A DNA stretch of 64,000 nt from a virus, in IMG/VR virus record IMGVR_UViG_3300009678_001574. One strand, given 5' to 3'. The position numbers were made by a program, and so were the translations under genes. The notes beneath the pieces are model-generated. The model saw only the letters and a list, made by a program, of their open reading frames with translations. It was not told the DNA's origin and did no database searches. Shown piece after piece: positions 19,953 to 60,412 of this stretch. Position 1 is the stretch's first letter. The number at the start of each line of letters is the position of its first letter.

Positions 19953-20228
19953 ATGAACACCGTCCAGACCAGCACCGTCCCCGCCATCGTCGAGACCCCG
20001 GAGCAGGAGCTCACCCGTCTCCGCGCCGAGAATGAGGCGCTCAAGGCTGTCAAGGCCCAGGGTATCAAGGGCATGAAGGTGAGCGAGAAGGGCGCCTTGT
20101 CCATCTACGGCCTCGGTCGCTTCCCGGTCACGCTGTACCGTAGCCAGTGGGAGGCCCTGCTCGCCAAGGCGGAGGACATCAAGGCCTTCATCGAGGCGAA
20201 CGCGGCGAAGCTCAAAGCCAAGGAGTAG
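19953..20228 (+). CDS. Early protein A; coiled coil plus PC4-like beta module
   Basis: GC-rich codons; KVSEKGALSIYGLGRFPVTLY..QW; fold assignment is inference. Confidence 0.75.
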   Translation: MNTVQTSTVPAIVETPEQELTRLRAENEALKAVKAQGIKGMKVSEKGALSIYGLGRFPVTLYRSQWEALLAKAEDIKAFIEANAAKLKAKE

Positions 20229-50017: not shown

Positions 50018-50100
50018 GGGTAGATGGCAGAGCGGCAATTGCAGGAGACTGTAAATCTCCCGCTTCGGCTTCGGAGGTTCGAGTCCTTCTCTACCCACCA
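50018..50100 (+). tRNA. tRNA-Tyr(GUA)
   Basis: GGGTAGA/TCTACCC acceptor, GGAGA-CTGTAAA-TCTCC anticodon arm, long variable arm, GGTTCGAGTCC, encoded CCA. Confidence 0.95.
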
Positions 50101-50105
50101 CTTGT

Positions 50106-50232
50106 GCCCTTGTAGTTCAATTCTTAGAGCAACGCTGCCTGGTAGCTTCGGCTGCTAATAGGGTGGGAGTTTGATCACTCTCTTCGGTCTTCGAGGCGTA
50201 GATATATGGTGTAAATCCTTTCAGGGGCTCCA
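50106..50232 (+). ncRNA. tRNA-like RNA with 58-nt structured insert in anticodon arm
   Basis: Acceptor GCCCTTG/CAGGGGC+T+CCA, D arm GTTC/GAGC, ACGCT/GGCGT stem enclosing two hairpins, degenerate T arm. Confidence 0.6.
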
Positions 50233-50243
50233 ATCGAGGAAAC

Positions 50244-50483
50244 ATGAAGTTCAACATAAGTAAAGAATGGTGTCAATGGGCTGCTGAATTGGAAAACAAT
50301 TCAGAGGTTGGTGCTGGTGTTCAGGCTGGAAAGATTCGCAAGATTGCTGACCTTCCCAGAGTATGCAATGATTTCGCTCATGACCCGCCAGGGATGATTG
50401 TGCTAGATAACGGCGTGTATCAATATGAATGTCCTGGTTGTGGGCACATAACTACATTCACTGTCAACAAGCCAACTCTCTAA
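50244..50483 (+). CDS. Small zinc-ribbon protein
   Basis: C...H.PP ... CPGCG; GAGGA RBS. Confidence 0.55.
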   Translation: MKFNISKEWCQWAAELENNSEVGAGVQAGKIRKIADLPRVCNDFAHDPPGMIVLDNGVYQYECPGCGHITTFTVNKPTL

Positions 50484-50488
50484 ATTAC

Positions 50489-50560
50489 GCCAGCGGTCTC
50501 GGAGGCTCCAAGATAATCGTTCAATCGTCTCCCGAGGTGCAACGCCTCCCGCTGGCTCCA
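50489..50560 (+). pseudogene. Degenerate tRNA-like element (72 nt)
   Basis: Acceptor GCCAGCG/CGCTGGC+T+CCA and T-like arm GAGG-TGCAACG-CCTC; D and anticodon arms do not pair well. Confidence 0.5.
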
Positions 50561-50787
50561 ACCGAAATTTGGGACCATCTCCAACTTTTCACGTTGAAGC
50601 CCTTTCATGGCTGCGGTGGCCCCAATTTAACTACAGAGTAAGGGAATAAACAAATGGATGCAATGGTTGCTCGTGCTGTGGCTTCAGTTGCGGTTTGTGC
50701 TGCTGGCGCCTATGCAATGAATATCTCGAATGGTTCAACTGGTATTGGCTGGACTGTTCTTGGTCTTCTAATTATTTGGGGTAATGC

Positions 50788-52740: not shown

Positions 52741-53175
52741 ATGCCGGACGAGCACTCAAGCAAAGTGGCCGTATATCCGGGTTCGTTCAACCCGTGGCAT
52801 AGCGGACATAGCGATGTACTGGCTAAGGCGCTAGCTGTTTTCGATAGGGTTATCGTTGCAGTAGGGACTAATCCTGATAAGCACGACAGCTCCCTGGAAG
52901 TTTATAATAATCTAACGACTGTCTTTTCTGTGAACCCTCGTGTAGAGGTTAAGCGCTTCACTGGGCTGTTGGCAGACTTCGTTAAAGAAATTGGTGCGAC
53001 GGCTGTAGTGAGAGGGCTGAGAAACAGCAACGATTTCGAGTTTGAACAGACGCAACAATACTGGAATGAAGACCTGGGGCTTCCGTGTCCCATTCTACAT
53101 TTCATATCCAAGCGCGAACTTGTACATATGTCTAGCACTATGATTCGCCAGCTTGAAAAGTTCAAAGGAAAATGA
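52741..53175 (+). CDS. coaD: Phosphopantetheine adenylyltransferase
   Basis: AVYPGSFNPWHSGH, FDRVIVAV..NP.K, VRGLRN..DFEFE, SST.IR. Confidence 0.88.
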   Translation: MPDEHSSKVAVYPGSFNPWHSGHSDVLAKALAVFDRVIVAVGTNPDKHDSSLEVYNNLTTVFSVNPRVEVKRFTGLLADFVKEIGATAVVRGLRNSNDFEFEQTQQYWNEDLGLPCPILHFISKRELVHMSSTMIRQLEKFKGK

Positions 53176-53741
53176 TTAGGATATTACTGGCTGCTTTGCT
53201 TATCTCGTGTGACGCGGGTCAAGTAGATGTGGTACAGCCGCCAGTAACGCCTGGGTTTTCTTTTTGCGAGTTCAATGTAGAGGGAGCATGTGTAATTTTA
53301 TACAGCCCTCATATGAAGGTTGACCCAGTAATATTATCTACGTATCTGGGTTATCTGGAATACGAAGTTAACTACTATTTTCCTGGGTTAGACCTGTCTG
53401 ACTTGGCCGAACAAGAGCAGTTGGATATAGTATATAAGTGGGCCAACTGGAGCACAGAGCACCAAGGAGAATACGCAGACTACGAAACTACAGCTTACAT
53501 CTATCTCCGCCAAGGTGAGGCTATAGTTCCTAGAATGGAGTGTACTGACAGGTACCTCATAGTGCTGCATGAGGTTCTACACTTCTTGACTGAGCGTTAT
53601 CTGTTCTACGTTTATGTAGATGGAGACGTTCACAATGTGCCTAATTTGTTTAGACGTTGGGCTTTCTTGAACGACCTATCTACAGACCTCACAGTAGAGG
53701 GTAGGCTTACCACTATGGTTTTAAGGTACTGTCAAACGTAG
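53172..53741 (+). CDS. Lipoprotein with HExxH motif
   Basis: LLISC lipobox; VLHEVLH. Confidence 0.6.
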   Translation: MIRILLAALLISCDAGQVDVVQPPVTPGFSFCEFNVEGACVILYSPHMKVDPVILSTYLGYLEYEVNYYFPGLDLSDLAEQEQLDIVYKWANWSTEHQGEYADYETTAYIYLRQGEAIVPRMECTDRYLIVLHEVLHFLTERYLFYVYVDGDVHNVPNLFRRWAFLNDLSTDLTVEGRLTTMVLRYCQT

Positions 53742-53747
53742 GAATAC

Positions 53748-54158
53748 ATGAACGACGAAGAACAGATAGAGCAGCTAACCAAAACTTTGTATAGAGTTGA
53801 GCAGCAGAACAAGAACCTGCATCAGCTTATCAATGAAGGTGGCGGCTGTTGTAAGTGTGAAGTGGATAAGTACGGTATAGTGATAGATACCTGTGAAGTC
53901 CACCTTGAACTAGAGCAAGCCAAGACTCGCAAAAATCCCAAGTATGAATTTGGGTACGTAAGACTTGGGTACTCATTTGATAACGTTACTGGACAAGGTT
54001 TTGTTCTCAAGTGGAGCTGTAAGGGTATCGGCTTTGGTGAACTTACCTTCATCAAAGATGGCGATAAAACCAAATGCGAAACGGAATGTATGTCTCCTGA
54101 GTTTGTTCAAGCTGTGCTGGACGAATTCTGTCGTGGTCTAATTCTTCTAAATAGGTAA
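53748..54158 (+). CDS. Hypothetical protein
   Basis: 136-aa ORF. Confidence 0.5.
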   Translation: MNDEEQIEQLTKTLYRVEQQNKNLHQLINEGGGCCKCEVDKYGIVIDTCEVHLELEQAKTRKNPKYEFGYVRLGYSFDNVTGQGFVLKWSCKGIGFGELTFIKDGDKTKCETECMSPEFVQAVLDEFCRGLILLNR

Positions 54159-54162
54159 GCTC

Positions 54163-54618
54163 ATGCGTAACACGCTCTGCATTATAGACATGCAGCCAAA
54201 GTTTCCTGCCTCTGACCATATTTTGCAGCAGGTCATTTGGAAGGTAGAAGAAGCTAAACAGAACAAATGGTACATAGTAGTACTAGAGTATGACAACTAT
54301 GGTCGTACTAATGCAGCCTTGTGTAATATTCTGCGAGGCTATAAGCGCAAGGTCTATGTCACTAAGTACGAGGACGATGGTAGTTTGGAGTTCGCATCAG
54401 CCGCCCATAAGAACAAGTTCAGTTTAAGTACGGTTGTAGTGATGGGCGTGAATAGAGGATGGTGCGTAAGAGATACTGTAGCTGGACTTTTAGACCACGG
54501 AAAAATCAAAAGCATTCTGATTGCCAAAGATGCTACCTGGGGCCGTCGACCGGCCAAAGAACTCGAAAGCCTAGAAGCCCTTGTTTCTCAGTATCCTAAT
54601 AGGATTAAATTTGTATGA
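54163..54618 (+). CDS. Isochorismatase / cysteine hydrolase family (nicotinamidase-like)
   Basis: LCIIDMQ, K..DDGS, VVMGVN..WCV..T. Confidence 0.75.
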   Translation: MRNTLCIIDMQPKFPASDHILQQVIWKVEEAKQNKWYIVVLEYDNYGRTNAALCNILRGYKRKVYVTKYEDDGSLEFASAAHKNKFSLSTVVVMGVNRGWCVRDTVAGLLDHGKIKSILIAKDATWGRRPAKELESLEALVSQYPNRIKFV

Positions 54619-58870: not shown

Positions 58871-59200
58871 ATGCGAGCTGGATTCTTTGTTGACCGACTC
58901 AAGGTTCATATTGATTTTCCTGGAGCTACTAAGTTCAGACTTACCACTCTGTATCGCCAGAAAGAATTCGAGGTTGGTAAGCATAGATTCATTAATGCAG
59001 AAACACTTGAGCCTATCAAGTTTGTTTCTAACGATATTGCCTTCTACTTACTTATCAGTGAGCATACTGGAATGAATCCTAAAGACGACACAACCAGGTA
59101 TAGCTTTAAGGCTCAAATTACAGACCGCGGCGGTCTAGTAGGAGAAACGGTTCATAACAAGCCGCTCACTGTAGACTTCAAGATGGCGAGGAAAAAGTGA
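58871..59200 (+). CDS. Hypothetical protein
   Basis: 109-aa ORF. Confidence 0.5.
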   Translation: MRAGFFVDRLKVHIDFPGATKFRLTTLYRQKEFEVGKHRFINAETLEPIKFVSNDIAFYLLISEHTGMNPKDDTTRYSFKAQITDRGGLVGETVHNKPLTVDFKMARKK

Positions 59201-59673
59201 AGGAAGCAAGAGTAGATATTCTTTCGGCAGAGATTCTTAAAACCGCCGATGCTATCTGCTTCACCTCTAATGGCATTGTGAAATCCAATGGTGAGCTGGT
59301 TATGGGCGCTGGTATAGCTAAGGCATTTGCTGACAAGTGGCCGCCTTTGGCTATTCGAGCTGGTCACTGTGTTAAGATGGGCGGCAATAGAGTACATTGG
59401 CTAAAGGACATTTTTACTTATCGCCTTGACGATGGCAGTCATAAGTACGTAGCTGTTGTTTCTTTTCCAACCAAAAACGATTGGAAGAGTCCATCTAGTT
59501 TGCCTCTCATCATCGAATCTGCCACGCAACTATCTACTCTCGCTAATATTCGTAAATGGAACAATGTATATCTTCCTAGGCCTGGTGTTGGACTTGGTGG
59601 ACTGGATTGGAAGAATGTTAAAGCTGCTATCGAACCGCTACTTGATGACAGATTTACAGTAGTGTATAAGTGA
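59197..59673 (+). CDS. Macrodomain (ADP-ribose processing) protein
   Basis: TSNG.V..NG.LVMGAGIAK, FPTK.DW, PRPGVGLGGL.W. Confidence 0.85.
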   Translation: MKEARVDILSAEILKTADAICFTSNGIVKSNGELVMGAGIAKAFADKWPPLAIRAGHCVKMGGNRVHWLKDIFTYRLDDGSHKYVAVVSFPTKNDWKSPSSLPLIIESATQLSTLANIRKWNNVYLPRPGVGLGGLDWKNVKAAIEPLLDDRFTVVYK

Positions 59674-59680
59674 GGTTGTT

Positions 59681-59971
59681 ATGAGCAAGATGCCAGCTAG
59701 AATATTGTGGAAGGCTTATGATGGTAGAGAGTTCATCATTGAGCCGCACAAGCTAAAACTGAATAGCATGGAAGAAGTCTATGTTCATATCAGCGAACTT
59801 CGCAAGAAACACGGCTATGAAGACCCAACATTCATGCACGTTGTAGCTCCACCCGAACTAGACGTTGGCAAGACTACTGATACCAGTGAATTGCCTGACA
59901 AGCTCAGGGCTGAAGTTGAAAACGTAATCAAGGAAGGGCTTGACCGGCCCGACCCAAAGAAACAAAACTAA
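59681..59971 (+). CDS. Hypothetical protein
   Basis: 96-aa ORF. Confidence 0.5.
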   Translation: MSKMPARILWKAYDGREFIIEPHKLKLNSMEEVYVHISELRKKHGYEDPTFMHVVAPPELDVGKTTDTSELPDKLRAEVENVIKEGLDRPDPKKQN

Positions 59972-59980
59972 GGAAATAAA

Positions 59981-60412
59981 ATGCACACGATGAAAATTTT
60001 GCGAGGAGTTAGCGGCAGCGGCAAGAGCACCAGGGCTAAGGAGCTTTGTAAGGAAGTTCTTGGTCAGGGTAAGCAGGCTGTCACCTGCTCTGCTGACGAA
60101 TTTTTTGTCGACCCCGCTACTGGTGATTACAACTTCGACAGTCGTAAGTTGGGTGAGGCTCATGCTTGGTGCCGTGGCAATGCTCACATGGCTATGCGTC
60201 TCGGTGTTGACCTCGTAGTCATTGATAACACCAACACTCGTCGCTGGGAGTACGAGGGTTATATCAAGATGGCCACTGATGCTGGCTACGAAGTGAGCGA
60301 AGAAATCGTTGGACAGTTCGATGAGAGCAATCTCAAGGCGTATGCCAATCGTAACAAACACGGTGTTCCGCTGGATGCTATTCGTAAGATGGCACAGAGG
60401 TTTGAAAAGTAA
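59981..60412 (+). CDS. P-loop kinase, AAA_33 / N4BP2 / polynucleotide-kinase-like
   Basis: ILRGVSGSGKST, SADEFF, AH.WC, VVIDNTN...WE, RN.HGVP...I..M..RFE. Confidence 0.85.
   Translation: MHTMKILRGVSGSGKSTRAKELCKEVLGQGKQAVTCSADEFFVDPATGDYNFDSRKLGEAHAWCRGNAHMAMRLGVDLVVIDNTNTRRWEYEGYIKMATDAGYEVSEEIVGQFDESNLKAYANRNKHGVPLDAIRKMAQRFEK

Follow-up and report, generated by a model that had tools for sequence, protein, structure and literature searches.

What kind of RNA is encoded directly behind a phage tRNA-Tyr gene, where 127 nt (positions 50106–50232, + strand) have the outline of a tRNA but carry two hairpins in the place of the anticodon loop? A sequence-only reading had offered two answers, namely a tRNA scaffold displaying a structured RNA domain or an unusual intron-containing tRNA. 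The stretch of DNA analysed here (64,000 nt, "the window") belongs to an ENA metagenome contig of 468,446 bases with densely packed small ORFs on the + strand and matches to phage families; by its sequence it is from an uncultured jumbo phage. A 100% identical sequence (L033) came from a separately listed Logan run, representing a second assembly without new variation, so an assembly error is an unlikely origin of the 127-nt element.

The tRNA-Tyr(GUA) gene (50018–50100, +) ends 5 nt before the element, as had been read, and has the same position in two homologous loci, L035 and L036. A gene for an outer-membrane beta-barrel protein (OMP; PF13505, 49504–50013, +) anchors synteny with L035, and its presence suggests a diderm host for the phage; the sole named distant homologue was from a Deltaproteobacteria bin. 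Lying directly before the tRNA cluster and kept in L035, the OMP gene is itself a candidate superinfection-exclusion or envelope-modifying gene. No ORF of at least 60 aa overlapped 50106–50232. The next ORF (79 aa, 50244–50483, +), which has its ribosome-binding site immediately 3′ of the element's CCA, was missing at the equivalent place in L035. Further along the + strand, cytidylyltransferase-like, isochorismatase-like, macrodomain and AAA_33 kinase genes (52741–54618 and 59197–60412) possibly form an NAD/ADP-ribose and RNA-repair counter-defence neighbourhood. Around position 20000 of the window the G+C content steps abruptly from ~0.39 to 0.58.

Structure and ancestry of the element

The sequence and a listing of its pairs bore out the tRNA frame as first read, with acceptor stem, D arm and encoded CCA in place. 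The 5′ strand of the acceptor stem (50106–50112, +) pairs with 50222–50228 over 7 bp, including two G.U pairs, and is of the Thr type (G1-C72, C2-G71, C3-G70 and U73); the discriminator U73 and the CCA (50229–50232, +) are read directly from the sequence. The D arm (50115–50130, +) has a 4-bp stem (50115–50118/50127–50130) and an 8-nt loop without GG (C18-U19, or U18-U19 in L035). The 5′ strand of the anticodon stem (50132–50136, +) pairs with 50195–50199 over 5 bp and is identical to that of the tRNA-Thr(UGU) of L019; only 3 bp and two G.A oppositions were present in L035. In the T arm (50205–50221, +), the loop (50210–50216) is invariant and contains G55-U56, and the stem has U.U oppositions at 49-65 and 51-63 in the window. 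The T arm had been called degenerate, which is true of the stem in the window lineage but not of the loop, nor of the L035 stem, which has a perfect 5 bp with A51-U63.

The insert replacing the anticodon loop is exactly 58 nt (50137–50194), as the sequence-only reading had it. Its hairpins H1 (50137–50164, +) and H2 (50165–50182, +) were both present in the MFE and centroid folds of the window copy. H1 is closed by a cUUCGg tetraloop, which is cUACGg in L035 and lost in L036, and is the least constrained part of the element. The H2 loop (50170–50177) is T-loop-like (G53-U54-U55-U56-G57-A58) and invariant except for the final purine. A stub hairpin of 3 bp (H3, 50184–50194, +) follows and is not kept in L035. 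Because two hairpins occupy the place of the codon-reading loop, the element cannot decode. ARAGORN and Rfam made no tRNA, tmRNA or family call on 50106–50232. A scan of both strands of the whole window for a frame of acceptor stem, T-loop and CCA gave four matches, i.e. tRNA-Tyr, tRNA-Lys, the element and a 72-nt sibling RNA. The folding energy of the window copy was within chance (z −0.2 to −0.5 against shuffles) and was dropped as support for it; the L035 copy folded at z −3.3.

In all three homologues the elbow contained Y18-U19 and G55-U56, with no D-loop GG. The G55-U56 combination was found in none of 229 scored phage tRNAs. The D-loop GG was absent from all 10 of these tRNAs with G55 and from 6 of 7 with U56, but from only 1 of 212 with U55-C56, indicating that loss of the GG and the variant T-loop are coupled and do not reflect random decay. 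Ten phage tRNAs with normal anticodon arms also combined G55 with a GG-less D loop, and the elbow variant is therefore not diagnostic of non-ribosomal use. In the tRNA arrays of L115, L116 and L124, 16 of 17 tRNAs with a G55 or U56 T-loop lacked the D-loop GG and were apparently decoding. Non-proteinogenic tRNA-Gly of Staphylococcus aureus have U18-U19 or C18-U19 (PMC4574755), a TGC or TGT T-loop triplet and A51-U63 (PMC7826273), and bind EF-Tu weakly (PMC4574755; PMC7826273). The 51-63 pair of the element was A-U in L035 and U.U in the window copy.

The acceptor, D stem, A26, anticodon stem and U73 were nearly identical to those of phage tRNA-Thr(UGU) (e.g. L019:2729-2803), a likeness biased by the fact that L019-type loci were fetched by a pattern built on the element. 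By covariance model, Arg(UCU) genes scored close to Thr. The combination of G1-C72, C2-G71, C3-G70 and U73 occurred 12 times among 254 phage tRNAs, each time in a tRNA-Thr (12/12). The letters CTTCGA, previously taken for the remnant of an Arg-UCG anticodon, are indeed present, within H3, but were not conserved in L035. Since they differ there and the acceptor signature is Thr-only, the Arg remnant was rejected; on this sequence evidence the frame is derived from a tRNA-Thr gene and not from a tRNA-Arg gene. A Thr-like C-U-G-G-U-A-G stretch in H1, considered as a hidden anticodon, is paired and not conserved, and was also rejected.

A second copy of the 3′ portion of another tRNA, comprising hairpin, T arm and stub, is the probable origin of the insert, a proposal with modest support from sequence comparison. 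When scored against a T-loop profile, G plus the H2 loop ranked in the top 0.12% of window 8-mers, in a post hoc comparison whose profile included one sequence retrieved through those letters. In local alignments of the inserts to 227 tRNAs (pattern-fetched ones removed), H2 was mostly laid on the T arm, and 6, 11 and 2 of 150 shuffles scored as high for the three inserts. If the insert is such a duplicate, the RNA would present two T-loop-like surfaces. Homology to tRNA-shaped RNAs of L118, L145 and L130 through shared loop letters was considered and rejected: the family model did not match them, and these loci had been selected by that very pattern.

Homologous loci and evidence of selection

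Homologues L035 (907-1028) and L036 (313-439) were reached via neighbouring proteins, giving three distinct sequences including the window. The elements are 122–127 nt long, with inserts of 54–58 nt. L036 is a close strain with nine differences from the window copy, six of them within H1; four changes in stems replace G.U by Watson-Crick pairs, and one breaks the loop-closing pair of H1. L035 is from a diverged phage in which OMP gene, tRNA-Tyr and element follow in the same order as in the window. In the OMP gene, 33 of 58 four-fold degenerate sites (57%) differed between L035 and the window.

At this divergence, L035 matched the window letter for letter in the acceptor end, the T-loop and bases 1 to 7 of the H2 loop, apart from one G.U to A-U change in the acceptor stem. 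The identity of one 7-mer by chance at 57% neutral divergence would be ~0.003. One substitution in the acceptor (14 nt, U73 and CCA), against changes in 5 of 8 D-stem bases, indicated that the acceptor end is sequence-constrained. The D stem, H1, H2 and T stem of L035 had other letters but retained their pairing, and H1 again had a cUNCGg loop. Two of four D-stem pairs and three of six H2 pairs were changed on both sides. A covariance model built from the window sequence alone found L035 at 56 bits and placed its insert on H1 and H2.

Covariation among homologues, proposed beforehand as a check, was then counted on a model-fitted alignment, because MAFFT misaligned the insert. On this alignment, which was fitted to the proposed structure, 12 pairs were changed on both sides, all of them from L035 (the one informative sequence of three), and 93.9% of cells were paired; none of 500 shuffles equalled this, and slid controls gave at most 4. 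As for random decay of the insert helices, which had been named as a sign against a structured domain, no pair of H2 was broken, while the H1 tetraloop was lost in L036. Identity of the acceptor, T-loop and H2 loop, together with compensated helices, despite 57% four-fold divergence, pointed to an element under selection, as judged from three sequences. The conservation and the compensated helices of L035 supported the earlier view of a tRNA scaffold displaying a structured RNA domain, and we regard a conserved, functional, non-decoding RNA as quite probable.

Pattern scans, blastn and the covariance model brought up no further family members from IMG/VR, GTDB, cultured phages or plasmids. The IMG/VR pattern scans and the GTDB scan yielded nothing beyond canonical tRNAs, ends of tmRNA, tRNA-shaped RNAs of unrelated kind and chance matches, and a scan of one metagenome gave four chance matches in a coding region. 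IMG/VR searches with neighbouring proteins detected no close phage, and on other contigs with homologues of these neighbours the region was absent or the contig ended before it. The family thus appears, as far as seen, to be narrow within the collections searched.

Other tRNA-shaped RNAs in the cluster and in other phages

The 72-nt sibling (50489–50560, +) has an 8-bp acceptor stem and a 4-bp T stem (8/4), no D arm, a Thr-type end and a G55 T-loop. The loop of its 6-bp middle stem opens with a copy of the UCCA end. The sibling (72–74 nt) was more widely kept than the 127-nt element, being present in L035:1117-1190, L036:696-767, L110:495-566 and, as a 3′ part, L111:1-41. A third tRNA-shaped, CCA-ended RNA of 69 nt, with a G55 T-loop, a shrunken D hairpin and a non-canonical middle loop, occupies in L035 (1043-1111, +) the place of the 79-aa ORF of the window. 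Behind the sibling, a mini RNA (50569–50625, +) has a closing stem around two hairpins with Glu(UUC)-type 7-nt loops, a fold that was reproduced; it was absent after the sibling in L036, L110 and L111.

Unannotated tRNA-shaped RNAs with anticodon inserts were also seen in other phage loci (L145:1287-1389, −; L118:1107-1211, −; L131:2800-2955, +; L130 at about 902-1019, +). An alanine-type acceptor with G3.U70 is seen in those of L145, L118 and L131. A hairpin with the letters of the H2 loop and similar flanks is common to L145 and L118, which by sequence look like a separate family. In L117:1605-1715 and L125:5175-5285, tRNA shells of 111 nt carry a long hairpin instead of the anticodon loop, and a tRNA-Gly(UCC)-like gene in L116:315-424 (−) has a normal anticodon arm and a very large variable region (~40 nt).

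Possible roles and comparison with known systems

An intron-containing tRNA, spliced to a decoding form (miniature group I, BHB-like or protein-spliced), would account for an insert in the anticodon loop. However, U33 appeared in none of the eight excisions that leave a 7-nt loop, whichever of the three homologues was taken, no anticodon was common to them, no Rfam intron matched at E up to 10, the insert is only 54–58 nt, and the exons themselves lack G18-G19 and U55-C56. As no excision restores U33, the intron reading was discarded, and we give it hardly any chance. A slowly decaying pseudo-tRNA, i.e. a tRNA-Thr gene that a duplicated piece of a tRNA has disrupted and that owes its structure to ancestry, would agree with the T-stem mismatches, the lost H1 tetraloop of L036, the modest likeness between insert and tRNA 3′ halves and the absence of the element from the IMG/VR, GTDB, phage and plasmid collections. 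Neutral divergence of 57%, however, would not spare the acceptor, T-loop and H2 loop, and would leave unexplained the two-sided changes in D stem, H1 and H2 and the stable fold of the L035 copy; we consider decay improbable. The same grade was given to a processing signal (t-element), at which RNase P and 3′ nucleases would split a long + strand transcript, the insert being incidental. From the CCA to the following start codon there are 11 nt, which include the ribosome-binding site, and no + strand terminator-like site was found near the element. But tRNA-Tyr, 5 nt upstream, already offers a cut site, the L035 element lies between tRNA-Tyr and two further tRNA-shaped RNAs (four tandem RNAs, no ORF between), and a signal for which shape suffices would need neither an invariant H2 loop nor a compensated D stem.

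The tRNA frame might also be merely a stable scaffold for H2, acting as a self-complementary kissing loop or as a mimic of the 16S rRNA 5′ helix-1 loop, which we take it to resemble. The last six bases of this invariant loop are palindromic, its sole change (A to G) keeps self-complementarity through G.U, two H2 copies formed a duplex in cofolding, and the same seven letters occur in hairpin loops of the tRNA-shaped phage RNAs of L118, L145 and L130. Yet these three were picked by that pattern and are unmatched by the family model, the cofold was an extended duplex as expected of any hairpin with such a loop, and the 16S likeness shrinks in L035; the idea is very doubtful. A further rival is that the element can be charged and serves outside the ribosome as a donor or carrier of an aminoacyl group (Thr, Gly or Cys) for a transferase of phage or host that depends on aminoacyl-tRNA. 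Its D-loop, T-loop and T-stem signature is that of the staphylococcal non-proteinogenic tRNA-Gly, its acceptor is invariant, G1-C72, C2-G71 and U73 are acceptor determinants of bacterial GlyRS, and U73 alone gives Cys charging of minihelices (PMC9976931). On the other side, recognition as a Thr, Gly or Cys tRNA normally requires bases of the anticodon too (PMC9976931), while the element has no anticodon loop; the staphylococcal tRNAs retain their anticodon, and no aminoacyl transferase was found among the neighbouring proteins scanned. A donor or carrier is unlikely, if slightly less so than decay or processing.

Our preferred, still tentative reading is that the element is a functional, non-decoding tRNA mimic of the jumbo phage, and with the same reserve we suggest that it acts by binding host proteins that recognise tRNAs. 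The sibling in the same cluster, with the same Thr-type end, was counted for this reading; the two U.U oppositions in the T stem of the window, a fold no stabler than shuffles and the drift of H1 in L036 were counted against it. The element would be co-transcribed with tRNA-Tyr, cut by RNase P at G1 and trimmed at the 3′ side to the encoded CCA, giving a stable RNA of 122–127 nt. A branched domain of 54–58 nt instead of an anticodon loop would exclude it from the ribosome, as would elbow and T-stem changes like those keeping the staphylococcal tRNA-Gly off EF-Tu. The invariant acceptor end, the T-loop and the T-loop-like H2 loop could then be handles for host proteins reading tRNA ends or elbows. 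The likeliest such role would be that of a decoy or a competitor, directed at defence enzymes that attack tRNAs, e.g. the class of acceptor-reading toxins; anticodon nucleases would find no anticodon loop on it. FaRel2, a member of the antiphage-linked toxSAS class, picks tRNA-Gly as well as tRNA-Thr on the basis of acceptor pairs 1, 2, 4 and 5 (10.1101/2024.07.05.602228). FaRel2 shows the existence of a target class of this kind; it does not show that the element is aimed at it. That the element is specifically an anti-defence decoy we regard as rather unlikely, though worth considering.

Somewhat less likely again, and likewise by analogy, the phage may make a set of ribosome-excluded mimics with Thr-type CCA ends, sequestering host enzymes by which tRNA ends are sensed or attacked (e.g. 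Gly/Thr-specific toxSAS). If so, anti-defence by RNA decoys with Thr ends could also explain RNAs like RNAC of phage T4. A decoy would mean that phages oppose tRNA-targeting immunity with non-coding look-alikes as well as with replacement tRNAs, whereas a charged element would point to a new non-ribosomal role of aminoacyl-RNA during infection. RNAs of this shape are overlooked by tRNA annotation tools. The Thr-type end common to two mimics of one cluster, the elbow signature of ribosome-excluded tRNAs and the second T-loop-like hairpin provide testable handles.

Compared with canonical tRNA (RF00005), the element has the 7-bp acceptor stem, the D stem and the NCCA end, but lacks the 7-nt anticodon loop with U33 and the G18-G19 and U55-C56 elbow. 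It differs from the phage tRNA-Thr(UGU) of L019 in that 54–58 nt replace the 7-nt anticodon loop and elbow bases are altered. Like tmRNA, it has an acceptor and T arm with CCA and a larger domain in place of the anticodon loop; unlike tmRNA, it has C3-G70 (no G3.U70 alanine determinant), a D stem, no reading frame or pseudoknots and a third of the size. YrlA and other bacterial and phage Y RNAs (RF02553) are also non-decoding tRNA mimics with a T-arm-like hairpin beyond a stem at the anticodon position. In YrlA, which is encoded beside a Ro60 gene, the order of the tRNA parts is permuted, with T arm, closed acceptor hairpin and D arm (PMC4201824), whereas the insert of the element lacks an inner D arm, H2 is followed by no more than a stub, and the outer frame has free tRNA ends. 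No Ro60/Rsr Pfam match was found among called genes within 10 kb, and the element had no RF02553 match in Rfam. The staphylococcal non-proteinogenic tRNA-Gly (NP1-3) share with it Y18-U19, the TGT/TGC triplet, a weak 51-63 pair, G1-C72 and U73; they have a Gly anticodon (C35-C36), receive their amino acid from GlyRS and supply Fem transferases, against no anticodon and C3-G70 in the element. The element is therefore not a member of the YrlA RNAs, tmRNA, intron-containing tRNAs or non-proteinogenic tRNA-Gly, and no description of its family was found in Rfam or in the literature (mostly open-access coverage).

The closest resemblance in kind is to RNAC (species 1) and RNAD (species 2) of phage T4, of 139 and 119 nt, which are cut from a tRNA precursor (PMC2330249) and have no known function (PMC9697503, PMC12685909). 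No homology to rnaC/rnaD was detected: the covariance model missed the T4 locus (L146), and blastn of phages gave no T4-like match. The T4 RNAs and the element are alike in their location in a phage tRNA cluster, their size of 120–140 nt and their tRNA-like 3′ part, and in RNAC, as in the element, the 3′ end carries a T arm and long hairpins stand where the decoding arm would be. RNAC lacks a D arm, its T-loop is of the canonical TTC kind and its acceptor is imperfect, whereas the element keeps a D arm, an anticodon stem and a Thr acceptor. The element is thus a Thr-type variant of the known but unexplained class of RNAs from phage tRNA clusters exemplified by T4 RNAC and RNAD.
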